This document shows positions 7,110-39,403 of a stretch of DNA of 64,000 bases, piece by piece. Under the pieces are notes generated by a model. That model did no database searches. It worked only from the letters and a program-made list of their open reading frames with translations, and had not been told where the DNA came from. The DNA comes from a bacterium. GTDB taxonomy: Bacteria > Hinthialibacterota > Hinthialibacteria > Hinthialibacterales > Hinthialibacteraceae. Where the stretch lies: contig CAXXSM010000105.1 of NCBI GenBank assembly GCA_963663405.2, positions 1-64,000 on the forward strand, read 5' to 3'. Numbering within the stretch: the first letter of the stretch is position 1; each line of letters opens with the position of its first letter. Position numbers and translations under genes: made by a program.

Positions 7110-8120
7110 TCAAAACTTCTTCCATCCTTCTACACCTGTTTCGACACCAAAATCCGGTAAATCATACAGATCCAATAGACTGGCGGGACCTTTGTAGACA
7201 CCATAAATGATGGAATCTCCATCTGGAGAAAAGGAGAGGGAATAGATACTGTCAGACGCTTGAAATTCTTTGAGCAATCCATAATTTTGAATGTCGTAAA
7301 TTTTGATTTCACTCCCCCACGAGGCGGCGGCCAGCCATCTGCCATCGGCAGAAACATCCATTTCGCTGACCGAACCGGCAAAGTTGGGAATGTTTCGGAT
7401 CACGGTTCCCTGCCTCAAATCTATCATTTTGATCTCCTTGTTGTCGGAGCCTGTCAACACAGTCTTTCCATCTGGGTGGAAAACGAGTGATTGAATGGAA
7501 CCTGTGACAAAGAGTTCGAACAACCGGTCCGCAGACTCTGTTTCATACACTTGAAGCCGTCCATTCCCCAATCCCAAAGCCGTCAATCGGCTATCGGGAG
7601 AAAATCCGGAGGAGAGGACATTCATACTCGCTTGAAAGGAATGGTATTCATTAAAATCATTGGCGTCCCATATATGAGCTTCCCCACCGATTCCTCCCGT
7701 AATGATTTTGGAACCATCAGAGGAAAAACAAACCGTCACAATTGTGTCTCTGTGCTGGAACCGATGAATCACATCCCCTGTTTCAACATCCCACAATATG
7801 GCGTTTTTATCTTCGGAACCGGTCAAAATCCGTTTCCCATCCGGGGAGAAAACGGCGGAACGAATCGAGCCGGAATGACCGGTTAAAGATCTGATTAGAG
7901 AGCCATTCTTCGCGTTATAGAGACCAAGACCGTCTGTTCCCCCAATCACAACAATCGATGCGTCAACCGGTGAGAAATCCAGCGCGAGAGATGAATCCAC
8001 AGGAATAGTAAGAATAGGGGATTGAGCGGGAGAGGTTTGCGATTGGATCACAACCAAAACACAGAAAAAGATCGAAGACACAATGACAATTCGGAAACAC
8101 AATTGTAGAAATTTAAACAT
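7110..8120 (-). CDS. Secreted WD40-repeat protein with VxxWxxF C-terminus
   Basis: GHSGSIRSAVFSPDG..SEDKNAILWD repeats; N-terminal hydrophobic signal; ends GVEGWKKF. Confidence 0.9.
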   Translation of the reverse strand: MFKFLQLCFRIVIVSSIFFCVLVVIQSQTSPAQSPILTIPVDSSLALDFSPVDASIVVIGGTDGLGLYNAKNGSLIRSLTGHSGSIRSAVFSPDGKRILTGSEDKNAILWDVETGDVIHRFQHRDTIVTVCFSSDGSKIITGGIGGEAHIWDANDFNEYHSFQASMNVLSSGFSPDSRLTALGLGNGRLQVYETESADRLFELFVTGSIQSLVFHPDGKTVLTGSDNKEIKMIDLRQGTVIRNIPNFAGSVSEMDVSADGRWLAAASWGSEIKIYDIQNYGLLKEFQASDSIYSLSFSPDGDSIIYGVYKGPASLLDLYDLPDFGVETGVEGWKKF

Positions 8121-8352
8121 TAATGTTGACTCCAAAAATAAAATATCAGACGCATCTATAAAATTGAGGACTTTTTTTCAAACGATCTTCATTTTTTAAA
8201 AAAATAAGCGGCGCCGAAACTAAGGTGTTTTCAAGTATATCACGATATGTTGAAATGTCCTGCAATTTCTTTCAATCGGTTAATGCAAGATAATTTATAG
8301 CATGTAGAGTGGGTAGCGTCTTAATGAGGCGCCAATTTCGTGAATCATTCCC

Positions 8353-8382
8353 GGTGGGTCGATAAAGCGTGATCCACCCTAC
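8353..8382 (-). repeat. GTAG-type REP-like palindrome
   Basis: Minus strand reads GTAG-GGTGGATC-acgctttatc-GACCCACC. Confidence 0.5.
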
Positions 8383-8484
8383 CTCTACCGCTAAACCAAT
8401 ACCCTTTATCCTGTGTCTTATGAGTTGGGGGAAACAAAACATTCCCACTATTTTAAAATCCAAACCAATGATAGGAGAAAGGCA

Positions 8485-9150
8485 ATGAAACACGCGGGTT
8501 TTCTATTCGGTCTCATCGTACTGATCGCGCTGGGAACACTGGTGATCGCATCTGAAAGCGGGGAAAAAGCAAAAGCGTCGATCTGGACATTCGAAAATGA
8601 AGAATTGGGCAAGGTCCCAAAAGATTGGGAGATCACGGAAACCAACGGCAATGAGAAACTGGCGGCTTGGAAAGTTGTAGAAATGGACGGCGCGCCCAGT
8701 GGCGAAAAAGCATTCGTTCTTACTGAAACGAAAAACGTTAAGCGGACATACAACCTGGCCATCGCGAAAAAGACCTGTTACAAGGACCTGACAATCGATC
8801 TGAAAGTCAAATCCATGACCGGCGAAGAAGATCAAGGCGGCGGCCCTATCTGGCGGGCGAAGGATAAAGACAACTATTACATCGCCCGTTGGAATCCACT
8901 GGAAGACAATTTCCGCGTCTATTACGTCAAAGACAGCAATAGAACACAGATCGCCAGCGCGAATGTAAAAACAGACACCTCTAAATGGCACGACATCAAA
9001 ATCGTCATGGTGGGGAACATGATCACAGCTTCGTTTGATGACAAGATTGTGATTAAATTGGAAGATTCCACATTCACCGAAGCGGGAATGGTTGGTCTCT
9101 GGACAAAAGCCGACGCGGCGACGGCGTTTGATGATCTGAAAGTGAAGTAA
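8485..9150 (+). CDS. Secreted DUF1080/ConA-like beta-sandwich protein
   Basis: Signal peptide; GEEDQGGGPIWR..NYYIARWNPLEDN..GMVGLWTKADA. Confidence 0.8.
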   Translation: MKHAGFLFGLIVLIALGTLVIASESGEKAKASIWTFENEELGKVPKDWEITETNGNEKLAAWKVVEMDGAPSGEKAFVLTETKNVKRTYNLAIAKKTCYKDLTIDLKVKSMTGEEDQGGGPIWRAKDKDNYYIARWNPLEDNFRVYYVKDSNRTQIASANVKTDTSKWHDIKIVMVGNMITASFDDKIVIKLEDSTFTEAGMVGLWTKADAATAFDDLKVK

Positions 9151-9241
9151 TACTTGAATCGAATTGATAAAAGATAGAAAAAAGGCAGACTCAAGAAGTC
9201 CGCCCCAATTCAATTATATGATTAAACGAAATGAATAGGAT

Positions 9242-10930
9242 TTAATAGAGCGCCCATTCCCCGACGGCGACAGGTTCATAAATTTCCCCATCCACCATTA
9301 GGACAACATCCGTAAAGATACCTGTACTGATGGCGCCTGTTGTATGTGAAGTGACAGCCAATCCGACATACACAGGATCTTCCATATCCGGCACATCATG
9401 ATAGTACCACCAGATTTGTTCATCGGTTACTGGATCGTAATAGTAGAAATTGATCTCCGTTCCAATCCGTTCAATTTCTATTTTTCCTTCTTGCATACTG
9501 TTATTGGTTTTGCCACCAACTAAACTGGCGTCACCATCCCAGGCGCCACCAGCGCCCTGCGTTTCGCGCCATTGCGGTCCATAATCCTGACCGCCATTCC
9601 GGATCATGGCGAAACCATGCGCCGAACCAGGCGTTAAATTGTTCCGTACCATTGGACCGGCTTTGGCCCAGTCGGGTTCACCGCCACCCACTTGAAGATC
9701 AACGGTCGCAATTAGATTGACATCGCCGCTCACTTCGGAATATACGAAGTGGAAGTCATCAGCGGCGTCCCAAATATCATGGCCGCTTCCTTCAATCGTA
9801 TAGGTACCCGTGTCAGCGTCATACGTAGCGCTGCCCTCAGCGCCTGGAGAACCGATATCGAGATGATCCTGGAAAATACCAATCGGTTCATCAACCATGA
9901 CAAAGAGATCGATATCTCCATCGGCCAAGAACTCTTTTCCTCCAATGGTGACGGCGCCATTAATGGAAACATCGCCTTTACCGGCGTTGGCGGCGACTGT
10001 TAAATCGTAGGTTAATGTCGCTGTGCCAGACGCGCCGGGAAGATCCCAAACGATCGCTCCATTAACGATATTCGTTGTGCCGGCGTCTGCATTTACATTC
10101 GCTATGGTCCATCCTTCTGGAACCGCTTCCGTAACAACCGCGTCCGCCGTAAATCCTTCATCGACCGTCATTTCAAGTTGAACACCCGCTAACAATTCAC
10201 CTGGGATGACAGTTGTGCTCGGAGCCGTGCGATTTAATAACGCGCCGATCTCGATCGCTTCGATTACTACATCACTGAAGAACGCGCGTTCAAGAGCGTT
10301 TACATCATGCGCTGTTACACATAAGCCAACATTAAGCGTCTCGGGCATATCATCGACGACCTGAGATCCGACCACGTTGAAACCGCCATTGACCGTTCCA
10401 CGATACATCGTAAATGTATCTCCAATCCGTACCAGACGAATCACATTAGTATCGGCGGCTGTCTTTGACGTTATCCCTATGTTTACAGAACTGCCCCCCT
10501 GAGTCGGCCGGGCCTGCACATCGGCGGCATCATCATTCCGCAGTATGCACATTGCATGACGGGCGCCTGGTTCGTAAGGATCCGCTATACTATCTCTGGC
10601 CATGATCCCCATTTTTTTCCATTCGTTTCCCGCATGGATATTCGTTGGATCGTCACCTGGGATTTCCTGCGGTCCCCAATTGGCGTCACAGGTGGCCATG
10701 AAGTTTCCGGTGACTTCTTTGTAGACAAAAGTAAAATTATCCGCCGTGTCCCAAATATCGGTGCCGGAGGCGAGAATCTCGTAGACTCCGTCCACATAAC
10801 TATTGTCATCCGGAAGAGACCAATTGTCCCCGATGATCGCCTGGTCCGTGAAGTCTCCAAGCGGCTGCGAGAAAGCGATTGGAACTGAACATAATAGCAG
10901 TCCCATGATTACTGCAAAACGATTTTTCAT
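9242..10930 (-). CDS. Secreted acidic modular protein (two ConA/DUF1349-like domains around an Ig-like module), VxxWxLY tail
   Basis: Repeated G.DIW...D.F.FVY..V.G and W.K.G.M.R motifs; signal peptide; ends VAVGEWALY. Confidence 0.85.
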   Translation of the reverse strand: MKNRFAVIMGLLLCSVPIAFSQPLGDFTDQAIIGDNWSLPDDNSYVDGVYEILASGTDIWDTADNFTFVYKEVTGNFMATCDANWGPQEIPGDDPTNIHAGNEWKKMGIMARDSIADPYEPGARHAMCILRNDDAADVQARPTQGGSSVNIGITSKTAADTNVIRLVRIGDTFTMYRGTVNGGFNVVGSQVVDDMPETLNVGLCVTAHDVNALERAFFSDVVIEAIEIGALLNRTAPSTTVIPGELLAGVQLEMTVDEGFTADAVVTEAVPEGWTIANVNADAGTTNIVNGAIVWDLPGASGTATLTYDLTVAANAGKGDVSINGAVTIGGKEFLADGDIDLFVMVDEPIGIFQDHLDIGSPGAEGSATYDADTGTYTIEGSGHDIWDAADDFHFVYSEVSGDVNLIATVDLQVGGGEPDWAKAGPMVRNNLTPGSAHGFAMIRNGGQDYGPQWRETQGAGGAWDGDASLVGGKTNNSMQEGKIEIERIGTEINFYYYDPVTDEQIWWYYHDVPDMEDPVYVGLAVTSHTTGAISTGIFTDVVLMVDGEIYEPVAVGEWALY

Positions 10931-11269: not shown

Positions 11270-12907
11270 TTAATAAAGAGACCAAGAAGCGACATCGACT
11301 GGTTCACCAACGGATGAAACGATTAAATCGTCAAACGCAATACCACCGACGACCTGACTTAAATCGCTTCCAGCGTTAATCCAGCCGAAGAGACCCACCT
11401 GTCCTTCCGCATGAGTGTCATCTTCAACAATCGCATGTAATTCCCCATTAAAATATAAATAGATTGCATTTCCTTTTACGATCACAAGGTAATCCTGCCA
11501 TTCATCCAGTGTTTGTGAAAATGCTTCGCTATAGAGTTCCGATCGGGTTCCACCGGAATAGAGAATTAGCATCAAATAGCCATTGACAAACTGCCAGGAG
11601 TAAAAATTGCTGATATCCGTCGCACGGAAGGTAATTCCCCAGTCGGCGTCGTCAACCGAACCCATTGCCCGGACGGAGATTGCGCAATCTGTCAGAGGTT
11701 CACCTGTGAGAGTAACCAATGGGCCACCGGCATCCATAAATTCATAGAAAATCCCCTCTTCAATATCCCAAAAACCAGCGAGATCTTCCCACTGATCTAC
11801 CTGCGCCGCGTCTTCGAAATCAAAGGAGAATAATTCGTCACCCACAGTGACATCGATTAAGTAAAGAGTATCCGCTCCGACAAAAGTAATCGTGCCATCT
11901 GTGCCTGTCCAGACCGCGCTATAACCAGAAACGGATGGATCATAATCCGCTGGAACAGTTACGGCATAAGAAACCGAAGAATTACCAGAAGGCACTGATA
12001 TATTCCATTCAATATTTCCACCACTCTCAGCGCCATTATCACTGATATTACTCACAGCCAATCCCGCAGGAGGAGTTTCCGTTAGTAAAGAATCAATGGG
12101 ATCCGCGCTAGGATTAAATAAATCCAACGTCACATTTATAGTTTGCCCTGGAAGAAATCTATCCGAATCCAACTTACGTGTGACACCAACAACATTTTCA
12201 ATTTGTTCCAAAACGACTTCCGACACCGTGGCTTCAACGAGGTACTCATCATCAACGTGATTGGTAATCACCAATCCCCAGGCGATTTCTTCGGGGAATT
12301 CGATGGTTTGACTGTCAGAGGGGAACCACTCGGTACCATCATACGAATATTGAGATTCTATCAAGTTGATTTCCGCATACCGCCGGATGCGCAGATAGAT
12401 CCCATCCGCAATATCAGCGACTGGGGTTGTGCCATCCTCTTCAAAAATCTGAACGTTTCCAGAAGAGCCGCCAGTTGTCAAACGCCACTGCGCGTCCACC
12501 CGGTCTCCATAACCCGCGCCCCGTAGTTCCGTCCAGTAATGACGTGAATCCGCGGCGTCGCCGGTTTCCCGCATCATGACTCCAACCTTAGACCATTCGT
12601 TGGAACCTGGATCTTCCCAGTACACTTTAGCGGAGAGAGACCAGCTGCCGGACAGATTCGAGTAGATGAAATATCCTTCATCGCTATTACCCCAGATATC
12701 ATCGCCGTTGCCACGCATCAGATAGGTGGCGTCAGCGCCCGAACCGGTTACTTCAACGCTGCCAGCAACCTTATAGTTACCCAATTGGGGTGGAGAATCC
12801 GGGCCTCCCCAATCGGCGGCATTGTCAAAAATGCCATACGGCTGCGAGAAAGCAAGCGGGCTTGCAAGGCAGAATAATGCCATGAGTACTACAAATCGAG
12901 TTTTCAT
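11270..12907 (-). CDS. Secreted acidic modular protein (ConA-like, Ig-like, DUF1080-like), VxxWxLY tail
   Basis: Signal peptide paralogous to that of 9242; GDDIWGNSDEG, WSKVGVMMR and GQVGLFGW motifs; ends VDVASWSLY. Confidence 0.85.
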   Translation of the reverse strand: MKTRFVVLMALFCLASPLAFSQPYGIFDNAADWGGPDSPPQLGNYKVAGSVEVTGSGADATYLMRGNGDDIWGNSDEGYFIYSNLSGSWSLSAKVYWEDPGSNEWSKVGVMMRETGDAADSRHYWTELRGAGYGDRVDAQWRLTTGGSSGNVQIFEEDGTTPVADIADGIYLRIRRYAEINLIESQYSYDGTEWFPSDSQTIEFPEEIAWGLVITNHVDDEYLVEATVSEVVLEQIENVVGVTRKLDSDRFLPGQTINVTLDLFNPSADPIDSLLTETPPAGLAVSNISDNGAESGGNIEWNISVPSGNSSVSYAVTVPADYDPSVSGYSAVWTGTDGTITFVGADTLYLIDVTVGDELFSFDFEDAAQVDQWEDLAGFWDIEEGIFYEFMDAGGPLVTLTGEPLTDCAISVRAMGSVDDADWGITFRATDISNFYSWQFVNGYLMLILYSGGTRSELYSEAFSQTLDEWQDYLVIVKGNAIYLYFNGELHAIVEDDTHAEGQVGLFGWINAGSDLSQVVGGIAFDDLIVSSVGEPVDVASWSLY

Positions 12908-16648: not shown

Positions 16649-17687
16649 ATGGGAGAAGAAAACGGCCGATTGAGCCGTAAAGAAGCCACCGCGTTGTTTC
16701 ATACGTCCAATGTAAACATGTTGGGGGAACGCGCTCACCAAGCGCGGATGAGGGCCACCAATCCAACGATTGTCACTTACGTCGTCGACCGCAACATCAA
16801 TTATTCGAATATCTGCGCCGCTCACTGCTCATTCTGCGCGTTTAAACGAAACTTGCTTGATGAAGACGCATACGTTCTTTCATCCGATGAACTTTACGAA
16901 AAAATCGAGGCGTTAGTAGACGTGGGCGGAACGCAGGTTCTGCTGCAAGGAGGTCATCACCCCAAACTTCCGTTTTCTTTTTATATCGATCTTCTGCGAG
17001 GAATCAAACAGCGGTTCGATGTTGATCTTCATGCCTTTTCCGCGCCGGAGATCGTTCATTTTTCCCGGATGTATAAAATGCAAACGCGGGAAACGCTGGA
17101 AAGGTTGCGGGAAGCGGGTCTCAACAGCATTCCAGGCGGTGGGGCGGAGATCTTGAGTGACCGGGTGCGATCGGAAATTACACGAGGGAAATGCCTCACT
17201 CGTGAATGGCTTTCTGTTCATGAGGAAGCGCATACGCTAGGGATGCGCACCACGGCGACAATGATGTTCGGGCAATGTGGAGACGATTGAGGAACGAATC
17301 GAGCATCTCGACCACATCCGGACGCTACAAGACAGAACCGGAGGATTTACCGCATTTATCCCCTGGACGTTTCAAGGACGGAATACTGAAATGGAGGGGG
17401 TGGCCGAATCGGGCGCGGTAGATTATTTAAAAACTCTAGCGCTATCCCGTCTGTTTTTAGACAATATTACAAACTTGCAGGCTTCATTTATAACGCAGGG
17501 AAAACAGATCGGTCAATTGGCGCTGTTTTTTGGGGCGAATGATATGGGGGGAACCATGATGGAAGAGAACGTCGTCGCAGCGACTGGAGTCTCCCATTGC
17601 AGCAATGAGAAAGAAGTGCGTTCTTTGATTGAAGACGCCGGATTTATTCCTAAAAAAAGGAACACCCTGTACCAGATTCAAAACTAA
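16649..17687 (+). CDS. mqnC: Cyclic dehypoxanthine futalosine synthase (radical SAM), split by a +1 frameshift at about 17274
   Basis: DRNINYSNICAAHCSFC, LQGGHHP, PGGGAEIL and GANDMGGTMMEENV motifs; removing one A from gggcAAtgtg restores MMFGHVETIEER. Confidence 0.85.
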
Positions 17688-17962
17688 CCACCTGTTTTTA
17701 TTAAGCTTGTATATATCCTATCCAACGACATGCTCAATTATTTAGAACTTGACAATCCAGTTAGCGCGATAAATCCCTCGATTATTATTTCCTGTCAATA
17801 TATGGACAAGAAGATAAATTCTTTGCAATTTTTTTCATGAGAAGACGTTATCAATGAATGAGAAAATAATATGGACAAGGATTGAGTTTGCTTATCAAGA
17901 CATGTACCATATTTATAGGTTTTGGAAAAATCTATTCTTTATATTTTAAGGGAGATTGTTTC

Positions 17963-18589
17963 ATGCGAAGAGGTTTTACACTTATCGAATTGCTTATTGT
18001 CGTGGCGATAATTGGGATTTTGGCCGCGATCGCTGTGCCCAATTTTCTCAATGCTCAGCTGCGTGCGAAAATTGCTCGAACACAGGCGGATATGCGTGCG
18101 ACATCGCAAGCGATTCTTCAGTTTCAGTTGGATAAGAATACGATGCTTCTCGATTATTGGGATGACGATGAAGCCTGGGCGCAGGTCCGGTGGGAGAAAG
18201 TGTTTAATCGTGTCGGCCCCCCCCCTCCCTACCACCTGTTCGAAGAACCTTACTATCCGCTCACCAGTCCTGTTTCCTATTTATCCTCCGTTCCTCAGGA
18301 TCCCTTTGCGAAACTCGAACATTCCGTTGGATTCGGCGCCGATGAAAAAGGACATTCCTATATTTATAACGACAACGATCCGGAGGGGGGCGGATATGGA
18401 ATCTCCATCAAACCGGCATTGAGAAAACAAGAACATTTTCTGGTCAGCATCGGTCCAGACGGCTGGATTGGAGTGAACAGCAGCGGAGATCTACGGGGCA
18501 TACCGTACGACTCGTCGAATGGTTTGGCCAGTTCCGGTGATCTCGTTCGCCGGGGAGACGGCGGCGCGACATACGATCCATACCAGTAA
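17963..18589 (+). CDS. Prepilin-type N-methylation domain protein (GspG-like pseudopilin)
   Basis: MRRG/FTLIELLIVVAIIGILAAIAVPNF; SD gggag; C-terminal YDSSNGLASSGDL. Confidence 0.9.
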   Translation: MRRGFTLIELLIVVAIIGILAAIAVPNFLNAQLRAKIARTQADMRATSQAILQFQLDKNTMLLDYWDDDEAWAQVRWEKVFNRVGPPPPYHLFEEPYYPLTSPVSYLSSVPQDPFAKLEHSVGFGADEKGHSYIYNDNDPEGGGYGISIKPALRKQEHFLVSIGPDGWIGVNSSGDLRGIPYDSSNGLASSGDLVRRGDGGATYDPYQ

Positions 18590-25129: not shown

Positions 25130-26131
25130 ATGAAGACGATATGCAGTTTTGTAACACTCATTGTTACTGTTTTTATGGTCTGTCAGTATCCCTCAGCCCA
25201 AGTAATCGCAGAACGCCAAGCCCAGTATCGAGACTACATTCCTGGCCAGCCAGTTCCTATCACGGTCACAATCGAAGGCACAGAATCCACTGAAATTACT
25301 GTAGTTGAAACCTTACCTGAGGGCTGGCTGGTGGGCGAAGTCAATCGTAATGTGACTGTGAGTGACAGTGTTATTACTTGGATTACCACAATCAAACCGC
25401 CAAGAGTTATAGAGCTAATCTACCACGCCTACCCACCGGAAACCGCTACGGGAGATGCGACGTTCTCGGGACAGATCAACGGCATTGTCATCAGCGGAAT
25501 ACAGACGTTACCGCAAGCCATGCTGAAACCGATTGGGATTTTCCAAGACCATAGAGATATGTGGTATTCGGGTACACCTGGCGATGCAGGCTATGAGAAT
25601 GGGCAATACTGGATTTCAGGGCGTTACATACCCCCTTTCGATCCTGCAAACAGATTTGGATATCACTTTGTTTATTCTGAAGTAAAAGGTAATTTCATAC
25701 TTAAGGCCCGAACTTCTATAAAACACAGTAGCCCAGATCCGAAGGTATATGGAGCACTCTGGGCAGTCAACAGTTTTGAGCCAGAAGCAGTGTACTACGT
25801 TTTTTTTATAGAAACAGAAACGAATGGTGAGGGATTTGCTAAAGCGATTTGGCGCGATAGTTTGGGTGGTTACTTCACTTTCTCTGCTGAAGTCCTCGAT
25901 AGTGAGTATGATTACTTGGAACTCGTCCGCGATGATCAGACCTTCAGCACATATTATTACGAATTGGGAATAGGAAAGCGGGTACATCTACATTCCAAGG
26001 AAATGCCAAACATGGATTATTCAATCCTAGTCGGACTCATTTTTAGCTCAACAGATGAGGATTCGAGAGGATATTATAGCGATGTAGAACTGATTACAGC
26101 TTCCTTGGTCAGTGAATGGGAACTTTACTAA
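25130..26131 (+). CDS. Secreted protein (Ig-like plus divergent ConA-like domain), VxxWxLY tail
   Basis: Signal peptide; VVETLPEGW and PIGIFQDH shared with 9242; ends SLVSEWELY. Confidence 0.85.
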   Translation: MKTICSFVTLIVTVFMVCQYPSAQVIAERQAQYRDYIPGQPVPITVTIEGTESTEITVVETLPEGWLVGEVNRNVTVSDSVITWITTIKPPRVIELIYHAYPPETATGDATFSGQINGIVISGIQTLPQAMLKPIGIFQDHRDMWYSGTPGDAGYENGQYWISGRYIPPFDPANRFGYHFVYSEVKGNFILKARTSIKHSSPDPKVYGALWAVNSFEPEAVYYVFFIETETNGEGFAKAIWRDSLGGYFTFSAEVLDSEYDYLELVRDDQTFSTYYYELGIGKRVHLHSKEMPNMDYSILVGLIFSSTDEDSRGYYSDVELITASLVSEWELY

Positions 26132-26348: not shown

Positions 26349-27647
26349 TTAATTGGACTTTCCATTTGAAATCCGGTTTGCCCAGAGAGCGCGGATTCGA
26401 TTGGCCAGCGGGTTTTCCGGATCGATTTTCAACGCCGTTTCAAGATGCTGAAGGGCTTTTTTGGCGTCGTGAAGTTCTAAGCAGCATTGCGCAATCATCG
26501 CATGCAGCGCCGCTTTATCCTCCCGAATAGGCAAGCATTGGTTTAAATTCTGGATCGCGTTTTCGTATTGATGACTCGCCATATTGATTTGCGCGAGATA
26601 GAAGGGGGCCTCTTTATTATCAGGGTCCAACACGAGCACGTGGCGCAACTCGTCCGCCGCAAGATTGCCCCGCCCTATTTCAAGATAGATCAGCGCCATG
26701 GAAAAATGCGTTTCAGCGGTATCGGGATGATGACGCAGGTAACTGCGGTAAAAATTGCGCTGGTTGCGGCCCATGCGGTTGATTCGATCCAGACTCTGTT
26801 TGGCCAGTGTGACTTTCTCTTTCTGTTTCTTGAACGCATAGATTTTGATTAATTGAAATAAAGCGTGTTGGTAAAAGGGATCTGTGTCGATGATCGTTTC
26901 GAAGATCTTTTGCGCTTCCTCGAATTTCCTGACGCGGAAAAGATATTTTCCATATTCATATTGGGCGCGGATATTATTCGGGTGATCTTTCAAGATGGCT
27001 TCGTATAGAGGTTCAGCGTCTTCGCCCCGCTGCTGAACCAGCAGGGCTTTTAAGACACGGGCGTGTTCGTGTTTCGGCAGACGGTCAACGATGGATTCCG
27101 CCTCTTCGACTTCTCCCCGGATATGTAGAATGACCGCTTTGCGATAGAGCGCGTCCGCATTGGCCGGTTCGCGCTTAAGAATCTCCTCTAATTGTTCTAG
27201 AGCGGGAGGAAAGCGCTGGAGGCGGTAGTAAATAGAGACCATTTCCTGACGATAGCGGATGGAATCGGGCGCGAGCTGGATGGCGGTTTTCATTTCATCA
27301 ATCGCCCGGTTTGGATCCCGTTTTTGGCTTCCCATGATTTGGCCCAAAAGATAATGGGCGTAAGCGTTATCCGGATCGAGTTGAACGGCGGATTCGAGAA
27401 GGGAGATAGCTTTCTCGTAATAGCGGTGTTGTTGATAGAGTTGGGCCAGTTTGAGGGAAAGAGAGACATCGTTGGGCTGGTTCTGGATCGCCTCCAGCAG
27501 GCTCTTCTCTTGTTGGGAGAATTGGGGATCTTGAATGACCGGTTCCGCGTCAAATTCGATGTCCACTCCGGCGTTCCCGGATTGCTGGGCGTAGACAACC
27601 GGATTCATAATTAGAATCAATAGGAATACGAACAATCGTTTATTCAT
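26349..27647 (-). CDS. Secreted TPR protein
   Basis: Signal peptide and many TPR repeats; overlaps the upstream CRTAC1 gene. Confidence 0.88.
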   Translation of the reverse strand: MNKRLFVFLLILIMNPVVYAQQSGNAGVDIEFDAEPVIQDPQFSQQEKSLLEAIQNQPNDVSLSLKLAQLYQQHRYYEKAISLLESAVQLDPDNAYAHYLLGQIMGSQKRDPNRAIDEMKTAIQLAPDSIRYRQEMVSIYYRLQRFPPALEQLEEILKREPANADALYRKAVILHIRGEVEEAESIVDRLPKHEHARVLKALLVQQRGEDAEPLYEAILKDHPNNIRAQYEYGKYLFRVRKFEEAQKIFETIIDTDPFYQHALFQLIKIYAFKKQKEKVTLAKQSLDRINRMGRNQRNFYRSYLRHHPDTAETHFSMALIYLEIGRGNLAADELRHVLVLDPDNKEAPFYLAQINMASHQYENAIQNLNQCLPIREDKAALHAMIAQCCLELHDAKKALQHLETALKIDPENPLANRIRALWANRISNGKSN

Positions 27648-29325
27648 CTTCTTGGATCACTATTCGTTGATTGGCTTTTATATTTTGATGTTTCGTGATT
27701 TTTCCCGACGGCCATTCGATCTCGATGAGATCCGCTTGTTCTTGTTTCCCCAATCCGAAATGAACAATCGTACTGTCTTGGGAGAGGAAACTGGAACCGC
27801 TGAAGATTCCCTTGGCCATGCGAATTTTACCAGCGGTTAATTTTACTTTGGCGCCGACCGCCTGCCGGTTGGAAGAAGAGCCGGTTAAAACGATTTGCAG
27901 CCAATGGTTCTTGTTTCCTCCATCGTTCCGGAGCACACGGGGATGACTGCTTAGGTTATTCAAAACTAAATCGATGTCGCCGTCATTGTCCAAGTCTCCC
28001 TGCGCGCATCCACGGCCAATGTTTAACTTGTAGAAATCAGATCCCAAGCCTTGTTCAACTAAAGCGAATCTGTTGTTCCCGATGTTTTCAAACAGCAGCG
28101 GCGGTTGGGCGAACGCGGTATCCAGTTCTGGGTGATCCGCTTCCGGGTAGACATGTCCTGTACAGTAAAAGAGATCCTCATCACCATCGTTGTCCACGTC
28201 GATCCATTCCACACCCCAGCCAAGGGGGGTGTAGGTTTTATTGCCGACCGTGCTTGTGTAGGTGATATCTTGAAATGTCCCATCTCCGTTTCCGAGCAGG
28301 ACTGTAAACGGCTCTTCGGAGAAATTCGTGACGGAGATATCCCATTCGAAATCTCCGTTTGGATCGCCATAGGCCGCCCCCATCGACGCCATCTCGGTTC
28401 CATCCTCGCTATAGGCGACGCCCGCCATTAGGCCGGTTTCTTCAAATGATTCGGCGCCGTGATTGAGCAAGAGATAGCTGGGCATGGAATCGTTGGACAT
28501 ATATATATCCGGATAGCGGTCCCGATTTACATCGCCCCAGAGGCACGTGAAGGTATATCCAGGTTCAACCTCGGACAGTTTTGTTTTCTCCGTCACGTTT
28601 TCGAACGTCCCGTCTCCCTTGTTACGAAAGAGGGACATTCCCTGGGCCACGTACGCCCTCGGGCCGGGATACACTAAAAAGCCGCGCCAATGGGCTTTAT
28701 GTTTCTCCCGCGGGCCTTCCAGGGAATCCAGATCTAAGTAGTCGCCGACGAGTAAATCAAGTTTTCCATCCAGATCATAATCTCCGAACGCCGCGCCGGT
28801 GCTTAATAAATCTGATTGGCAGCCGGTTTCTTTGATGACATCGGTGAAATGTCCGTGACCGTCATTTTGGTACATGCGGTTGGGGCCGTAATTCGTGACA
28901 TAGAGATCCACATCACCGTCGTTATCGTAATCCGCCGCCGCGCAGCCCAGCCCCCAGCCTTCATCGCCAACACCCGCTTGTTCCGTGATATCGGAGAATG
29001 TTCCATCATGGTTGTTCCGGTAGAGCCGGTTGATGGGCGGTGGATTCAGACGCTTTTCGAATGTGCTTCCACTGACGAAATAGATATCCAGCCAACCGTC
29101 TCCATCCGCGTCAAAGAGAGCGACGCCTCCGCCTTTCGCTTCCACGATGCAGGTTTTTTCTTTGGGGATCCCCGCGACGTGAAGGAAGTCGATCCCCGCT
29201 TGTTCCGTGATATCCACAAATTGGACGGCGCCCTTTGTTAGATCCGCCGAACATGGATGAAGAATGAAGAAAGCGCATAGAATATTCAAGAGAAAAAACA
29301 GGCGTTTACTATTCATAGCAATCAA
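27640..29325 (-). CDS. CRTAC1-family (FG-GAP plus ASPIC/UnbV) protein
   Basis: DxDGDGxLD repeats, GRGCAQGDLDNDGDID, and C-terminal HFGLG..IEWPSG. Confidence 0.92.
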   Translation of the reverse strand: MIAMNSKRLFFLLNILCAFFILHPCSADLTKGAVQFVDITEQAGIDFLHVAGIPKEKTCIVEAKGGGVALFDADGDGWLDIYFVSGSTFEKRLNPPPINRLYRNNHDGTFSDITEQAGVGDEGWGLGCAAADYDNDGDVDLYVTNYGPNRMYQNDGHGHFTDVIKETGCQSDLLSTGAAFGDYDLDGKLDLLVGDYLDLDSLEGPREKHKAHWRGFLVYPGPRAYVAQGMSLFRNKGDGTFENVTEKTKLSEVEPGYTFTCLWGDVNRDRYPDIYMSNDSMPSYLLLNHGAESFEETGLMAGVAYSEDGTEMASMGAAYGDPNGDFEWDISVTNFSEEPFTVLLGNGDGTFQDITYTSTVGNKTYTPLGWGVEWIDVDNDGDEDLFYCTGHVYPEADHPELDTAFAQPPLLFENIGNNRFALVEQGLGSDFYKLNIGRGCAQGDLDNDGDIDLVLNNLSSHPRVLRNDGGNKNHWLQIVLTGSSSNRQAVGAKVKLTAGKIRMAKGIFSGSSFLSQDSTIVHFGLGKQEQADLIEIEWPSGKITKHQNIKANQRIVIQEDE

Positions 29326-31639: not shown

Positions 31640-33496
31640 ATGAAATTCATGGGTGTCGTAGTGTGTGTTCTCGCGCTGACGGCGGGTCTTGGTTTCACGC
31701 AGGATTTGGACATAAACAAATGGCCGCCCGATACAGATTTCACACAAGAAGTACATTACTGGAGCGCAGATGATTTTCTCTATGAAACGATTCCCTCCGG
31801 CGCCGGCCGCGATTTTGTCGATAGCCTTCTTATTCTAACCGGGGGCGATCAGGTTACCGATGACGTGGTTATCGGTGGGTATGACGGCATAAAAGCCACT
31901 ATGCAGTATTTCAATGTCGCAGATGAATTTTATGATTTCTGGCCGGATTATTATTATGATGTCTGGCCGGATTTTATGAACGTCGACGTATTAGTTCAAT
32001 ATTTCGCCAACGCCGAATCCATTCGCGATAACTTGGGATTTCGCCTCGGTACATTGGAGAATCGGCATACTGTGGATGGATACACATGTGAGTCTTTAAC
32101 CGATCAATGGGAATGGAGAGTGTTCCGTGTCGATAATAGTAACGCGTGGCTTGGAAACTTAGCCGATAGTACTGGTGGGGGCCAATACGGAGGCGTCAAT
32201 GGAGGCACGATCCGCTTTCAAAATACGACCGGCCTGATTTTCCGGGCTGTGGCGATCGGTCCGGAAGGCGCATTTGGGGATCCGGATAGGATCAATAGAT
32301 CCAATACCGTTGACTTTGATCCCAATCCATACGCCATTCTTGCGGAATGGGATATCGACAAAGGAATTACCAACGGACTCGATCTTTACATGGATGAAGA
32401 AGGTGATCAGGAACCAATCATTTCTGAGTCTATCGGCCCCGCTGACGATCAACGCAAAGCGGCCCGGCCCGCCAAGGGAGATGGAAGCGATGGGATTGAA
32501 GACAATTACCTGAATTGGTTGATCCTCGACGAACACTTCGGTCCAACCAGTCAGCCCAGTTTCCGCATCAAAGTAGTCGCAGAATATTACGACGATCCCA
32601 TCCTGGCGGGAGAAACGTTTGGACCAGATGTCTACATGACTGCTGGCGGTGGTGATCCCGTACCTTATCCGGCTGAAAATTGGACGGTCCTAACGGGAAG
32701 CGGCCAGTGGCTGGAAGCGGAATGGTATGTGCCTGATGTTAAACTCATCGGTGTGAATATCCCGTCGGACGCGCAGGCCGGGCCACGCTTCTATTTTAGC
32801 GGGCCTATTTACATAAGCCGTCTCCGTATGGGCGCCATCCGGTCATCGGGCATTTATGAAGGCGTCGATCCGATTCCGGATTCGTACCCATTCAATCCCG
32901 ATCCCTATGGAATCTATGCGGAAATGGATTTAGATCAAGATCTCTTTGATCATCTCAATATGGCCAATAACGGAGGCGATCAGGAATATATCATTGAGGA
33001 AGGAATAGGCCCGGCTGGTGATATTCGAACCGCTGTGCGCCCCGCTTTGGATTTGGGGACGGATCCATTTGACCGGTATATGAATTTTGCGATTTTGGAT
33101 GAGGTATTCGGTCCCAACGATCAGCCCAACGCCGTGGTAAAAATGGCTGTCGATTATTTCGATGATCCAGAACTGATTGGCGCGCAATTCGGAGCGGAAG
33201 TGTATAAAACAAACGCGTTTGGAACGCTTCAGATTGTCTCGGTTCCCAACGATCAACGTATCACTCTTGAAGGCGCCAACACTTGGCGCACCGCCGCCTG
33301 GCAGGTTGATAATTTAAACTTCAGCGGTGTAAACGTCAGCCCGCAAGGAGCGATGCGCCTCTGGTTTTCGGATAACAGCGCGATTCATATCAGCCGGGTT
33401 CGCATTGCGGTGATCCGGCCCGTTGGAGAATTCGCGGGTGTGGATATGCTGGCGGATGTTCCTTTAACCCCCGTCACCGGATGGGAATTGTACTAA
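31640..33496 (+). CDS. Secreted acidic protein with three internal repeats, VxxWxLY tail
   Basis: Signal peptide; GDQ..IG[PG] units three times; ends TPVTGWELY. Confidence 0.85.
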   Translation: MKFMGVVVCVLALTAGLGFTQDLDINKWPPDTDFTQEVHYWSADDFLYETIPSGAGRDFVDSLLILTGGDQVTDDVVIGGYDGIKATMQYFNVADEFYDFWPDYYYDVWPDFMNVDVLVQYFANAESIRDNLGFRLGTLENRHTVDGYTCESLTDQWEWRVFRVDNSNAWLGNLADSTGGGQYGGVNGGTIRFQNTTGLIFRAVAIGPEGAFGDPDRINRSNTVDFDPNPYAILAEWDIDKGITNGLDLYMDEEGDQEPIISESIGPADDQRKAARPAKGDGSDGIEDNYLNWLILDEHFGPTSQPSFRIKVVAEYYDDPILAGETFGPDVYMTAGGGDPVPYPAENWTVLTGSGQWLEAEWYVPDVKLIGVNIPSDAQAGPRFYFSGPIYISRLRMGAIRSSGIYEGVDPIPDSYPFNPDPYGIYAEMDLDQDLFDHLNMANNGGDQEYIIEEGIGPAGDIRTAVRPALDLGTDPFDRYMNFAILDEVFGPNDQPNAVVKMAVDYFDDPELIGAQFGAEVYKTNAFGTLQIVSVPNDQRITLEGANTWRTAAWQVDNLNFSGVNVSPQGAMRLWFSDNSAIHISRVRIAVIRPVGEFAGVDMLADVPLTPVTGWELY

Positions 33497-33619: not shown

Positions 33620-35002
33620 TTAGCGCAACATCCAACTTTCAACGCTGGCGGGCATGTGATCGGATGTGACGGTCAACCGGACGACATTGGTGAATCCAGC
33701 GCCTGTCGCGTAAATGATGATGAATGAGTCGCTGACGGGATCGTATTTGACATCATGATAGTTAGCGTCGTTGCTGATCGCAGTAGGTGTTTCCACCAGT
33801 TTGTATAGATCGTCAGGACGCCCTGGGAGGATTTCACCTTCCGGACCGAGAAGCGTAAACACCATCCCCTGAAAACCTCCGCTGGCGTTGTGAGATATCA
33901 CAATTACACCGCTGTTTGGATCGGCGGCAAGCCGTGGATGACGCTGGCTGAACGGCACACTTCCTGCCGCTTCCAAATAAGGAATTTGTTCCCGCGCTTC
34001 TTCCAAAACGTAATCGGGCGCCGGACCGATATTGAAATAGAAAATATCGCCGCCTTCCGCGCCGTTCGCGTAATCGAGAACACCAATAAATTCTCCATTA
34101 AAAGGATTCTCAATGGCGGAGGGATGGCCGGCGTCGAAATTCTTGCGCAGCTGGGAAACGATTCGTTGTTCACCCAATTGCAGACTACCATCATCGCCCG
34201 GCACAGTTTGAATCATCCGGCTTGAGATCCGATTGGGAGATGTGGATGGATCAATGTTTGTGATAAAGAGGAAGACGTCGTTCTCTTCTAAATAATAGAC
34301 GTCTGGATCGTCTTCATCACGTGTTGGTTCGAGAGAATCCAATCGAGTCGCTTCAGCGGTCAGGAGATTGCCGTCCTGATCGTACAGCAGACCGATAACG
34401 CCTTCACTTTCATCGGGTGGATCATATTCGGACACATAGATCATGTTCCCATTTTGCGAACTGCACGCTACGGCGGTATCCTGATAATTGAATTCGGTTT
34501 CCGGATCAAACGACCACGCTTTCACAACGGGATCCGCATCCCCTGCCGCGCTCTTGGCGTTAACGATCGCCATCAACGGAACGCGCGCGCCCGTGGGGGA
34601 ATAGCCGTCCGCCGCCACCGCTACAAAGTATTGGTTGCTGACCGGATTGTAGGCGACGGTCAATTTCTGCAATTCTCCGTAGGGATTGCCGACAATAATA
34701 AAAGGATCGCCGACTTGTGTGAGGGTCACAGGATTGTAAAAGAAACCCATGACCGCATGGACAGCGGGGTCTCCCGTGATGGGATCGTTATCCACCGCGA
34801 TGGTGTCGATCGTAACGAACAGGATTTCCGGTTCGTTTGTGTTCACGGCCAATCCCGCTTCTTTGGTGCTGGTCTCTTCAAACAGGGTGATCGGTTCACT
34901 GATCGTGAACTCGGGTTCCTGCGCGGCGGCGAAGCCACATAAGACGAGATTCGCCAGGATAGCGAACACCGCGCATTTGCTTAAAATACCTTTTTTCATC
35001 AC
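33620..35002 (-). CDS. Secreted acidic beta-propeller-like protein, VxxWxLR tail
   Basis: Signal peptide ending AAA/Q; recurring blade-like motifs (VAYNPVSNQYFV, VKYDPVSDSFII); ends ASVESWMLR. Confidence 0.8.
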   Translation of the reverse strand: MMKKGILSKCAVFAILANLVLCGFAAAQEPEFTISEPITLFEETSTKEAGLAVNTNEPEILFVTIDTIAVDNDPITGDPAVHAVMGFFYNPVTLTQVGDPFIIVGNPYGELQKLTVAYNPVSNQYFVAVAADGYSPTGARVPLMAIVNAKSAAGDADPVVKAWSFDPETEFNYQDTAVACSSQNGNMIYVSEYDPPDESEGVIGLLYDQDGNLLTAEATRLDSLEPTRDEDDPDVYYLEENDVFLFITNIDPSTSPNRISSRMIQTVPGDDGSLQLGEQRIVSQLRKNFDAGHPSAIENPFNGEFIGVLDYANGAEGGDIFYFNIGPAPDYVLEEAREQIPYLEAAGSVPFSQRHPRLAADPNSGVIVISHNASGGFQGMVFTLLGPEGEILPGRPDDLYKLVETPTAISNDANYHDVKYDPVSDSFIIIYATGAGFTNVVRLTVTSDHMPASVESWMLR

Positions 35003-35803: not shown

Positions 35804-36853
35804 CTAAAATGGCAAACCGCAATTTACACTTATGGTGCGATGTCGAAGAGCAGAATTGTCTGAAGGGAAATAAGCAGCAGCATATATTTCTACATCAGCA
35901 ATTAAGCTAATATCAGCTTGGCTGTTTTGCTCCCATTCAATAAAACCAAAACCAGTTATAAAATCGTTGTTATTCTTCATTTTCAAAAGTATTGTCTTTT
36001 GTGGCAATAAATCAAATTGGACAGTATTATTTGTAGTTGATCCAGTATTTTCAATGTATGTACCTGAAGTAGTTCCATCTATTAGTACTGTAAGTAATCC
36101 GCTATTTTTATCATTATTATCCGTTAATATAGAACCATCACTCTTTACTAATGTAACATAAACAGTTGAAACATCGTCTGCAATATTTGATATACTTATA
36201 AAACACTCATGATCATGGTATCCGGAATCATAACAACTCCACTTAGAGATATATGCTTTTCCTCTAGCCTTCGGGATAACATCAACTACAATCTCCGCAG
36301 GTTGATCTAAATCCACATATTCTTTACTAGGTATACGGACATCCACAAGACTTTCTGTGGTTGGCCGCATGGCTAGGCCATTATTAGCTGCTGTTCCGTC
36401 CACCCAAGCTTTTACTAGGTCTGTAATATCTACGACAATGGTTGTACCGATTTCCTCAGTGATAAATACATGATTGGCTTCGACTACAGCATTGACGGGC
36501 GGCATGTTGGAGGCTGTAATCGCGCTTTCGTTCCATGAACCTTCCACGGAAGCGAATTCCACTTCGCCCGGTGAATCCATGATGTTGACATACAATTTTA
36601 GATGCGCGCTTACAATATCCGAACCGCGATACTCTGCCAGAGTGGCGGTGTCAAACTTAAAAAATCCAAGTCGTCCTTGGCCAACAACATCATCCGCGCG
36701 CACATGGTTATTCGCACCCACATTGGTGTCAGGAAGAAATTCCAACACAGTAGCGTCATCAGTGACTGGTAATGTAAGCGTATCTGCATAAGTTGAAACA
36801 GCCCCAATAAAAAGGATACTCGTGATCGTTAAAACTAGACTTACGCTTCTCAT
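35804..36853 (-). CDS. Secreted DNRLRE/CBM96-like domain protein with an AT-rich C-terminal domain
   Basis: DATVLEFLPDTN, FFKFD..IVSAHLKLY, WNESAIT and DITDLVKAWVDG..NNG motifs. Confidence 0.8.
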   Translation of the reverse strand: MRSVSLVLTITSILFIGAVSTYADTLTLPVTDDATVLEFLPDTNVGANNHVRADDVVGQGRLGFFKFDTATLAEYRGSDIVSAHLKLYVNIMDSPGEVEFASVEGSWNESAITASNMPPVNAVVEANHVFITEEIGTTIVVDITDLVKAWVDGTAANNGLAMRPTTESLVDVRIPSKEYVDLDQPAEIVVDVIPKARGKAYISKWSCYDSGYHDHECFISISNIADDVSTVYVTLVKSDGSILTDNNDKNSGLLTVLIDGTTSGTYIENTGSTTNNTVQFDLLPQKTILLKMKNNNDFITGFGFIEWEQNSQADISLIADVEIYAAAYFPSDNSALRHRTISVNCGLPF

Positions 36854-37308
36854 AATTCTCCACCTTTGCATAGATATTTACAGAACTAAATATATTTATG
36901 CAGTTCTGTTATTAATTTCTTTGATTGAAAATTAAATGCAAAAATCACTCTATCTTAAAAATATAAAATTCAAAAGTCAAGTGAGCCTTTTACAAAATAG
37001 ATAAAGAGGATGTTTTTCATAATATAGATCAACAATCATGTAGAACTCTAGAAAATGGACATTATTTCGGAAATCTCCTGTAGATAGATTTTCAAATGAA
37101 AGAAAAATATATTTTATCTGACGGTGTGCGTCTATTTGAATTAAATTCTGATTGAAATTTTTTCACACCTCTTGTCTGAATCGTCAACACAAATCAAACT
37201 GTTAGCGAGTGATTAGGAGGAATGCTGAGGCCATAGAGTATCTCTCCGCCGTTCGTTTTCACACCGATACGAAAGAACTCGATCTTTTCCACATCAGGAG
37301 CACAATGG

Positions 37309-38319
37309 ATGAAGTTACTTATCACCGGAGCGTCCGGTTATCTGGGCGCCGCGATTTTGCACGAGGCGCTCGCGGAAGGGTATCGAATACGGGTGTTACT
37401 CCGTCCTGAATCGGATCGCAGCCAAATTCCAGACGAAGTGGAAATCATTCAAGGCAATCTACTTGATTCGCATTCTCTTCATCAAGCGATGAAAGGCTGC
37501 GGCGCTGTGATTCATTCCGCGGGGCTGGTTTCGATCTGGCGCCGCAATCCAAATGATTTTTATCAAACCAACGTATTGGGAACCGTTAACATATTGCGCG
37601 CGGCGCGGGATGAAAAAGTGGCGCGCGTCGTGTATACCTCGTCGTTTTTCGCACTCGGCCCCACCCGCGAACGGCCCGCGGATGAAACCTGGAGCAACCA
37701 TCTCACCCTGCCGCCAACCGAATATGCGCGGAGCAAAACCGAAGCGGATAAACGAGTCATGAATTGGGTTGAGGAAGGAAACAACGCAGTCCTGCTCTAT
37801 CCCGTATTTTTATATGGGCCAGGGAAATCAGAGAAAGGGAACTGTGTTTCCACGCTATTGGAAGACTATATAAATAGAAGAATCCCCGGTGTCATCTATG
37901 GAGGGAATAAACGCTGGACTTATTCCTACCTACAGGATGTGGCGCGCGGTCACATTCTCGCCTTGGAAAAAGGACGTACGGGAGAGAAATATATCCTTGG
38001 CGGAGAAGACGCGACGCTGCGAGAGTTATTCGACATTGTGAAAGATATTACAGGCGTGGAACGCTCACGCGGAAGACGAACCTCGCGCTTTCTCAACCAA
38101 TACGCTTGGTTGGAGGAGACAAAAGCGCGTTTTTTCAAACAATATACTCCAAAAATGACACGGGAGAGTTTGGGCGTTTACCGGCATCATTGGCGGTATT
38201 CTTCCCAGAAAGCCATCGGTGAATTAGGCTACATTCGCACGCCGTTGAAAGTAGGAATCATAAAAACGCTGGAAAGCCTGGGGCTGGCGCCGAAAGAAGA
38301 CCGGAGCACAATTCTATAA
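37309..38319 (+). CDS. NAD-dependent epimerase/dehydratase (HpnA/DFR-like)
   Basis: ITGASGYLG, YARSK and DVARGHILALEKGRTGEKYILGG motifs. Confidence 0.9.
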   Translation: MKLLITGASGYLGAAILHEALAEGYRIRVLLRPESDRSQIPDEVEIIQGNLLDSHSLHQAMKGCGAVIHSAGLVSIWRRNPNDFYQTNVLGTVNILRAARDEKVARVVYTSSFFALGPTRERPADETWSNHLTLPPTEYARSKTEADKRVMNWVEEGNNAVLLYPVFLYGPGKSEKGNCVSTLLEDYINRRIPGVIYGGNKRWTYSYLQDVARGHILALEKGRTGEKYILGGEDATLRELFDIVKDITGVERSRGRRTSRFLNQYAWLEETKARFFKQYTPKMTRESLGVYRHHWRYSSQKAIGELGYIRTPLKVGIIKTLESLGLAPKEDRSTIL

Positions 38320-38356
38320 TTGTTTTTTATCGATTTCGTGGAAACGCAACTTTGAT

Positions 38357-39403
38357 TTAGAAAAGACTCCAATGATATACGGAGACGGGTTCACCGGCGA
38401 TCGAACCCGCGTTCAATCCATCAAGGCCCAAGCCGGACGCGGGAGAGCCGGATTGGAGGTTGAAATCCAGATCGGCGTTCAACGTTCCGGGCGTCACGTT
38501 GACGTACAATGGATTATAAACGACAGAGTCAATAATTTCCGGTTCGGCGCCGCCCGTCACCAAGAGTTCTCCTTCCGAAACCAGATCCCAGAGCACCGAA
38601 TTTTTAATCGTTAATGATCCTTGTGTCAGATAGATATCATCAGTTTCGACAGTTCCATCATTGCCGTTCGTTGCAAGGAGTATGGAATTGGTAATGGTGA
38701 CGGAAGGCCCTTCATTAGGGGCGGCTTCAGGATCATCGAGCCTCATGCTCACGGCTAAGTCATGATTAAAAAAATCACAATGGTCAAAGGTGGCGTACGA
38801 GGTATCCCGGAGATTGATGATTGAAGAAGGGGCGCCGAAATCGGATGGATAATCGGCTGTGATCGCGAAGACACAGTTCTTTACAATCATGGGCGCGGCG
38901 GGTGTTCCAACCGTCCGTCCACCGGTTGATTTGAAGATCGTCTGGCAGTTGATAAACCATACATTCTCAAAGATGACAGGAGCGTCTGAAGGCGAATCGA
39001 CACTTCCCGTGCGTAGATCAAGCGCGCGGCCATCCGCGTTCAAGATCGTTATGTTCCGGATAATCGCAGGCCCCCGAATCGAAAAGGCTCTTGCGTCATC
39101 CTCCGAGGCTGAATAGGAATAGAAATCCAAGATGGTCGCTTCGGGACCGAGACCGCTGCCCGAACCTTCGAGTACGGGAGTTTCATCTTGAAAACGCAGT
39201 TGAACGCCCATCTCATAAAGACCTGGCGCGAGTTTCATGGTATACGTGTCATCATAGTCTCTTAAATCGATGGAAATTAATACAGCGTCTTCTGGTTCGT
39301 ATTCCAGGATTTCCTGTGAAACCGCCGGTACAATAAAGAAAAGCGCAAGAATAAGAAAGGAGCCGATGCTCATTCCATTTCGGTTAGCCATTATTTCCTC
39401 CAT
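38357..39403 (-). CDS. Secreted parallel beta-helix-like protein, VxxWxLF tail
   Basis: KLAPGLY, FENVWF/VKNCVF/FDHCDF/ITNSIL coil pattern, DFNLQSGSPA; ends VSVYHWSLF. Confidence 0.8.
   Translation of the reverse strand: MEEIMANRNGMSIGSFLILALFFIVPAVSQEILEYEPEDAVLISIDLRDYDDTYTMKLAPGLYEMGVQLRFQDETPVLEGSGSGLGPEATILDFYSYSASEDDARAFSIRGPAIIRNITILNADGRALDLRTGSVDSPSDAPVIFENVWFINCQTIFKSTGGRTVGTPAAPMIVKNCVFAITADYPSDFGAPSSIINLRDTSYATFDHCDFFNHDLAVSMRLDDPEAAPNEGPSVTITNSILLATNGNDGTVETDDIYLTQGSLTIKNSVLWDLVSEGELLVTGGAEPEIIDSVVYNPLYVNVTPGTLNADLDFNLQSGSPASGLGLDGLNAGSIAGEPVSVYHWSLF

Follow-up and report, generated by a model that had tools for sequence, protein, structure and literature searches.

Seven proteins encoded in a 64,000-nucleotide stretch of contig CAXXSM010000105.1 (C105:1-64000, hereafter the window), from a bacterium of the phylum Hinthialibacterota, all begin with a hydrophobic N-terminal leader and end in similar short tails, raising the question of whether these tails form a C-terminal sorting signal outside the known systems. 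A first-pass annotation of the window had proposed as much. All seven open reading frames (ORFs) translate as it claimed and have the ends that it listed; counting the last residue as −1, V at −7 and W at −4 each occur in all seven, and L at −2 and a terminal aromatic residue in six apiece. Here we find that the tag is real and non-random, stands in exact C-terminal register and singles out acidic exported proteins with many unrelated folds. On balance, we favour the view that this nine-residue tail is a lineage-specific protein-sorting tag.

C-terminal sorting signals have, one by one, pointed the way to machines dedicated to them (sortases, exosortases, rhombosortase and the type IX secretion apparatus (T9SS)) and are routinely used to predict surface proteins. 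The tag described here differs in build from the known C-terminal signals; it would be a new sorting signal and could point to a new machine. Because it comprises nine residues, lacks both a membrane helix and a folded domain, and is borne by soluble folded proteins of a diderm, a new kind of reader is expected. The tag also marks out what is probably the exoproteome of an uncultured, polymer-degrading phylum, some 116-163 proteins in the source genome, mostly without assigned function, and a transplantable tag of this size would be a useful tool.

A nine-residue tag at the exact C terminus

The source genome comprises 8.44 Mb in 170 contigs, with 46.9% GC and 82% completeness. ORFs of at least 80 amino acids were called in six frames and those overlapping no longer ORF were kept, yielding a crude set of 7138. 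gyrB (C105:112781-115279) and two secretin genes (C118:113332-115781 and C133:24934-27410) are disrupted by many in-frame stops and frame changes, and several tail-bearing ORFs are detached from their own signal-peptide-bearing ORF, as in frameshift-split genes. Judging from these sequences, indel errors in the assembly seem likely, and gene counts are therefore approximate.

Across this set, 99 of the 7138 ORFs end exactly in the strict motif [VI]..W.[LVIM][YF], whereas its internal frequency (181 matches anywhere in the ORF set) predicts 0.24 such ends, and relaxed forms of the motif yield 116 to 163 carriers. The first-pass annotation had counted one carrier per 9 kb, which is correct for the window, whereas genome-wide the spacing is around one per 50-70 kb (116-163 carriers, 8.44 Mb, 82% complete); its extrapolation of the window density to the whole genome was about five-fold too high. 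The N-terminal half of the motif, [TVS][PSADGE][VI]..W, has 443 matches anywhere, of which 115 have W at exactly −4 and 19 at −5, with at most four matches at every other W-to-end distance up to 30. When all residue pairs in the last ten positions were scanned, the tail's own pairs ranked first, with W at −4 and Y at −1 observed together 99 times versus 10.3 expected (z 27.6).

Among the 99 strict carriers, position −9 is chiefly T (53), V (28) or S (10), −8 is P (27), S (21) or A (18), −7 is V (78) or I (21), −5 is D (26), N (18) or E (11), −4 is W, −2 is L (68), V (18), I (8) or M (5), and −1 is Y (73) or F (26), with information content at background beyond about −12. With the last residue left unconstrained (n = 115), it is Y in 63 cases, H in 24, F in 21 and R in 5. 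We write the tag as [TVS]-[PSA]-[VI]-x-[DNE]-W-x-[LVI]-[YHF]-COOH. The conserved T/V/S at −9, the common terminal His and a minor form in which one additional polar residue follows the motif (19 ORFs) were all absent from the earlier description. The Trp itself admits little substitution: W occupies −4 in 116 ORFs, F in 3 and Y in 5, and the control residue L in none. F or Y at −4 is also frequent in one paralogue family, and F/Y at −4 searched as a DNA pattern showed no excess over control.

Synonymous codons vary freely in the tails, all of them being used (V at −7 is encoded by GTT 25 times, GTG 20, GTC 19 and GTA 14), and the 80 nt 3′ of carrier stop codons are unrelated (similar in 6 of 4851 pairs), indicating selection at the protein level.

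The next signal once the carriers are removed, a C..H end, was rejected as a C-terminal signal. It arises from a 104-aa ORF present 15 or more times in nearly identical form, always with the end CRIH (for example, C6:9618-9932, C27:7025-7339 and C118:28316-28630), and is probably part of an insertion sequence.

The carriers are diverse in family. With tails removed, the 99 strict carriers fall into 47 single-linkage clusters (E < 1e-5), 32 of which are singletons, so the motif, with 99-163 carriers in at least 47 sequence clusters, is not confined to a few genes. They include WD40, LamG / 3-keto-disaccharide hydrolase and beta-propeller proteins, a weak beta-helix match, giant adhesin-like proteins of 2603-3288 aa, and many proteins without any match. 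Signal-peptide-like N termini were found in 84 of the 99 carriers versus 2346 of 7020 non-carriers (33%; odds ratio 11, Fisher p 1e-25), so that cytoplasmic proteins do not share the tail in equal measure, in line with the earlier observation of none bearing it in the window. The 15 negatives include one protein with a twin-arginine translocation (Tat) leader, two ORFs near contig ends and eight in which a signal-peptide-like ORF ends no more than 300 nt upstream on the same strand, as expected of split genes.

The carriers are also mostly strongly acidic, as first reported for the window: net charge is below −0.05 per residue in 92% of the 163 carriers defined by the relaxed pattern, compared to 19% of 1562 other signal-peptide-like soluble ORFs (p 1e-70) and 10% of ORFs without a signal peptide. 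Among the same 163 carriers, a lipobox-like motif occurs once and Tat-like leaders seven times; the latter indicate that folded proteins are handled. The tail occurs on only 2 of 38 sulfatase ORFs, most of which bear a Tat leader and are presumably periplasmic, and is therefore not a general mark of export.

In the window, carrier 1 (7110..8135, minus strand) is a WD40 beta-propeller (Pfam WD40, 110 bits) with a degenerate tail, TGVEGWKKF (codons 7113-7139), that has K at −2. Carrier 2 (9242..10930, minus strand) is an acidic protein of 562 aa with a signal peptide and the tail VAVGEWALY (codons 9245-9271), with no firm family in Pfam or NCBIfam. Carrier 3 (11270..12907, minus strand; 545 aa, signal peptide) ends VDVASWSLY (codons 11273-11299) and has a C-terminal domain of the 3-keto-disaccharide-hydrolase / LamG-like type (Pfam PF06439, 31.2 bits). 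Two carriers lie on the plus strand, and their tails are at the high coordinate rather than at positions 25130 and 31640, where the first-pass annotation had put them: carrier 4 (25130..26131; 333 aa, signal peptide, family not recognised in Pfam) ends SLVSEWELY (codons 26102-26128), and carrier 5 (31640..33496; 618 aa, signal peptide, an internal duplication, no recognised Pfam family) ends TPVTGWELY (codons 33467-33493). Carrier 4 has paralogues elsewhere in the genome, and a word-indexed protein search for its homologues returned carrier 4 alone. Carrier 6 (33620..35002, minus strand) is a 460-aa beta-propeller protein and ends ASVESWMLR (codons 33623-33649), WMLR being a degenerate tail; its AlphaFold model has sialidase-like or generic propeller structure matches with template-modelling (TM) scores of 0.44-0.53. 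Carrier 7 (38357..39403, minus strand; 348 aa, signal peptide) ends VSVYHWSLF (codons 38360-38386) and has a weak right-handed beta-helix match (Pfam Beta_helix, 19.9 bits, under the cut-off).

Structure predictions place the tail outside the preceding fold. With 15 orthologues in the alignment, AlphaFold predicts carrier 6 as a confident propeller (predicted local distance difference test, pLDDT, 85.7) whose last strand spans residues 437-445, while residues 451-459 have a mean pLDDT of 46 and no regular structure. A second carrier family (C21:56530-57921, 16 sequences; pLDDT 86.3) has its last predicted strand at residues 443-450 and pLDDT below 50 at residues 456-463, and three of its paralogues terminate just before the tail. 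In both models, coil or low pLDDT thus follows the last strand, and the tail is not predicted to be a strand of the domain before it. Orthologues of carrier 6 at 17 other loci keep the tail, with W in 18 of 18 loci and invariant in the 16 aligned orthologues (42-76% identity); the last residue varies (Y, F, R, H, K or Q), and two orthologues have one added residue. Disorder in the models, the constant W of the orthologues and the tail-less paralogues together identify the tail, as modelled, as a modular appendage.

Distribution and comparison with known signals

To place the tag among genomes, we compared the DNA pattern V-x-x-W-x-[LF]-Y-stop with its reversed control in the phylum, which is represented by 35 species genomes of one class. 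The source genome has 46 matches versus 6 in the control, and the other 19 genomes of its family have 16-43 versus 1-8. Outside the family, most of the remaining 15 phylum genomes show enrichment: the two sister families of the order have 4-19 matches and a further family of the class has 7-36. The lone genomes of the last two families are poor in tails, with 5 matches versus 2 (G019) and 3 versus 2 (G021). In related genomes, genuine stop codons follow the motif. Examination of 400 kb of G021 (C1:1-400000) found one tail-like end; the ORF caller performs poorly at the 65% GC of this genome, which is therefore tail-poor rather than a clean negative. This GC content, against 47% in the source genome of the same class, is also a wide composition range for a phylum of 35 genomes.

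Beyond the phylum, tail enrichment was at control level in five outgroups (Omnitrophota, Cloacimonadota, Rifleibacteriota, Planctomycetota and one further), in 61 Planctomycetota genomes (maximum 7 versus 8) and in 41 Omnitrophota genomes (maximum 2). These searches cover 105 distinct genomes, as the sets of 61 and 41 each include one of the five. Among the genomes sampled, the tag is restricted to one small phylum. In a gyrB scan, the closest matches were metagenome-assembled genomes at 79-82% identity, and the nearest with a named lineage was an Omnitrophota genome at 66%.

No model in Pfam or NCBIfam covered the tail when the seven whole window carriers were searched, and the last 30 residues of all seven had no NCBIfam hit at E up to 10, CTERM models included. 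In the literature we found no description of a WxLY-type tail; searches on sorting-signal topics gave only catalogues of tripartite signals, with subscription journals and supplementary files largely outside coverage. The earlier statement that the tail matches no characterised sorting system thus holds across the models and literature searched.

Indirectly, the best case for a sorting signal is made by relatives of a LamG carrier, which bear their own lineage's sorting signal at the equivalent place. A full HMMER search returned 5338 relatives; the best 150 of these, sorted by C terminus with our own patterns, comprised 19 with the tail, 12 with a T9SS-like domain, 1 with PEP-CTERM, 35 with an FYRL-like module and 83 others. 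T9SS was confirmed in both relatives checked (TIGR04183 or PF18962) and PEP-CTERM in the one checked (PF07589). The FYRL-like module is an observation in its own right: LamG homologues of other lineages (P0003, P0026, P0031, P0035 and 31 more) end in a module of about 60-80 aa with the form ...[FY][FY]R[LV]x[KP], which had no Pfam or NCBIfam model in the four tested and may be another unrecognised C-terminal sorting domain. FYRL-type ends show no enrichment in the source genome (8 versus 10 expected).

Each known class resembles the tag in part. The T9SS type A C-terminal domain (TIGR04183 / PF18962), found in Bacteroidota and their relatives, likewise marks the C termini of tens to hundreds of signal-peptide proteins per genome, unrelated in fold, within a single lineage, but is a folded module of about 70-100 aa, whereas the tail has nine conserved residues and is unstructured in the models. 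No T9SS domain matched the seven window carriers (Pfam, NCBIfam) or four further carriers (Pfam). Genome-wide, TIGR04183 had no match, the control genomes being silent too, and SprA/Sov (TIGR04189) had no match in the 82%-complete genome, nor in any of 14 control genomes.

Like the tail, the tripartite signals (LPXTG/sortase, PEP-CTERM/exosortase, GlyGly-CTERM/rhombosortase and MYXO-CTERM) place a short motif near the C terminus of many exported proteins. As described in one published catalogue, small C-terminal sorting domains are uniformly tripartite, with a motif, a membrane helix and a basic cluster (bioRxiv 10.1101/2023.06.07.544157). By contrast, tailed proteins stop zero or one residue past the motif, without a helix, and pattern scans of the genome's protein ends found one PEP-CTERM-like and one LPXTG-like end.

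The beta-signal read by the beta-barrel assembly machinery (BAM) is also C-terminal and beta-prone, with an aromatic end, on signal-peptide proteins of diderms, and the genome has BamA and a TamA-like gene. However, barrel ends in this genome alternate as ...x-Phi-x-F (BamA ends FSFGQSF), whereas the tail is built on W at −4 and L at −2, with Y as its commonest last residue, and is borne by soluble propeller, LamG and WD40 folds. The YxF C-terminal PDZ ligands that activate DegS share a hydrophobic or aromatic extreme C terminus exposed in the periplasm, but the tail is conserved back to −9 and tolerates H/R ends and one extra residue. The WxL domain (PF13731) of Firmicutes surface proteins, which in these Gram-positive bacteria folds as a unit of roughly 150-200 aa with two WxL motifs, is similar in name only (a C-terminal W-x-L motif), and had no Pfam match on the seven window carriers. 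Substrates of type I secretion, which have no signal peptide and an uncleaved C-terminal signal, were rejected as a parallel, given the 84 of 99 carriers that are signal-peptide-like and the split genes or Tat leaders that make up most of the other 15.

What the tag might do

Our favoured reading is that a carrier would be exported by the general secretion (Sec) pathway, or in a few cases by Tat, and would fold in the periplasm, where a trans-acting envelope factor would read its flexible, beta-prone C-terminal tail and route this acidic exported subset across, or onto, the outer membrane. Of the earlier proposal of a lineage-specific export or attachment signal, the descriptive part survived: the tail is not as frequent on cytoplasmic proteins, extends well beyond a few genes, is not a strand of the preceding fold in either model and matched no known system in the searches made. 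No reading machine was found, and the function is inferred. Several points weigh against a sorting role. The signal-peptide call is a rough heuristic that scores positive at a background rate of 33%. A terminal H or R is tolerated and 19 ORFs have an extra residue, which makes a strict reader of the free C-terminal carboxylate unlikely. Searches through PDZ-domain and Omp85 proteins, neighbouring families, and comparisons of secretin and prepilin counts yielded no reading protein: Omp85 members in the genome are only BamA and the TamA-like gene, and enrichment of neighbour families around carriers gave nothing machine-like besides prepilin genes.

The same tail might instead be a docking peptide that, after secretion by any route, adds a strand to some scaffold at the surface, for example a pilus-like fibre, a plentiful outer-membrane protein or an S-layer, holding enzymes and lectins on the cell as dockerin binds cohesin. 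We regard this as rather unlikely. The tail is rich in beta-formers and free in both models, the carriers count lectin-like, propeller and beta-helix proteins and giant adhesin-like ones among them, and genes for GspG-like prepilins are enriched beside carriers in a pairing conserved in one family; yet no scaffold bearing repeats of a receptor module turned up, an interface of nine residues is small, and a pilin-like neighbour is present for only 17 of 150 carriers. It is improbable that the tail is a quality-control or proteolysis signal, a ligand of a periplasmic PDZ protease (HtrA/DegP/DegS-like, or an S41 C-terminal processing peptidase) that would govern maturation, turnover or stress signalling rather than destination. 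A W-x-L-Y-COOH end resembles the hydrophobic C termini bound by PDZ domains of the HtrA/DegS type, and the genome has roughly 11 PDZ-domain loci. However, such a role leaves unexplained both the limitation of the tail to one acidic exported subset and the true sorting domains at the same position in homologues elsewhere; moreover, conservation of T at −9 and of V at −7 goes past the usual PDZ footprint. The last residue is Y or F in 84 of 115 tails but H or R in 29, and another 19 ORFs have one extra polar residue.

That the tail is an already named signal or domain missed by our searches seems quite improbable. Short motifs are poorly covered in hidden Markov model (HMM) libraries and literature coverage was partial, but neither the 30-residue ends of the seven window carriers (NCBIfam, E up to 10) nor these proteins in full length (Pfam and NCBIfam) gave a hit on the tail, and no matching literature was found. 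Least credible of all, and to our minds very hard to sustain, is the idea that the tail is a structural part of the carrier's own fold, or that gene calling or DNA repeated at gene ends has produced it artefactually. Beta-rich folds do often end in hydrophobic strands, and the ORF set is crude. Against this stand the 47 unrelated clusters, the disorder of the tail in both models, the paralogues without it, the varied synonymous codons, the unrelated downstream DNA and the real stops in related genomes.

If the tail is a sorting tag, its route could tentatively be a secretin/pseudopilin (type II-like) pathway, although we consider this unlikely. Type II substrates are, like the carriers, Sec- or Tat-exported, folded and soluble, and they are not known to carry a linear signal. 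The genome has at least seven secretin loci, two type II secretion system (T2SS) loci with GspD (N0 domain) and GspK, and 136 genes for GspG-like prepilins (N_methyl and T2SSG, about 200 aa), 11 of which end R[FYV]GP. A more specific and still doubtful version is that the tail is a linear type II-like secretion signal whose periplasmic reader would be a component of the conserved long-secretin locus or the expanded GspG-like proteins, some of which lie in operons with cargo. Were this true, it would inform the long-standing problem of cargo choice by type II systems and would be the first system of this type with a simple, transplantable, sequence-defined cargo tag.

The gene neighbourhoods offer some encouragement. 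A GspG-like gene adjoins 17 of 150 carriers, compared to 4.9 on average and never more than 11 across 500 random draws; both genes share a strand in 13 of these 17 pairs, which are separated by 8-465 nt, and the pairing is kept in all three close orthologues that could be assessed, in one family. A T2SS locus on C133 (L088:7774-8535 and neighbours) encodes a long secretin of about 950 aa together with a 253-aa protein of no known family, for which Atlas gave weak GspC/XpsN leads (0.85-0.86). The 253-aa protein was found in 31 of the 35 genomes, the exceptions being the tail-poor G019 and G021 along with G020 and G030. A second gene of this locus was undetected even in G033, which has the 253-aa protein, so absence at such distance is unreliable.

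Much of the evidence nevertheless opposes a type II-like route. Pilin-like neighbours are missing from 133 of 150 carriers, and neither secretin counts (3-9 per genome) nor prepilin counts follow tail counts: G016 has 166 prepilin matches and only 4 tail matches, and the tail-poor G019 and G021 have 6-7 secretins. The 253-aa protein is undetected in G020, which is rich in tails. The giant carriers of 2603-3288 aa also count against it, as proteins of this size would be unusual type II substrates. None of the PDZ-domain loci is at a secretin locus, leaving a GspC-PDZ reader without support. The C118-locus equivalent of the 253-aa protein was rejected as a tail reader, being present in the tail-poor G021.

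Other features of the window and genome

Two GspG-like prepilin-type genes lie in the window itself, one with an FTLIELLIV leader (17882..18589, plus strand) and a second at 50958..51584 (minus strand), and the FTLIELL-leader DNA pattern has 28-206 matches in each of the 35 phylum genomes. In one family of the class, the long-secretin match lies inside open frames of 2029-3966 aa, which may be fusions.

By eye, window ORFs with a leader and without the tail include 26349-27647, 27640-29325, 35804-36871, 41785-42714 and 51840-52433. On the plus strand, the short, overlapping ORFs 16649-17290 and 17277-17687 resemble halves of one frameshift-split gene. Elsewhere in the genome there are 63 sulfatase-domain matches, most with an RRxFLK Tat-type leader, and this abundance of Tat-leader sulfatases is consistent with a degrader of sulfated polysaccharides.

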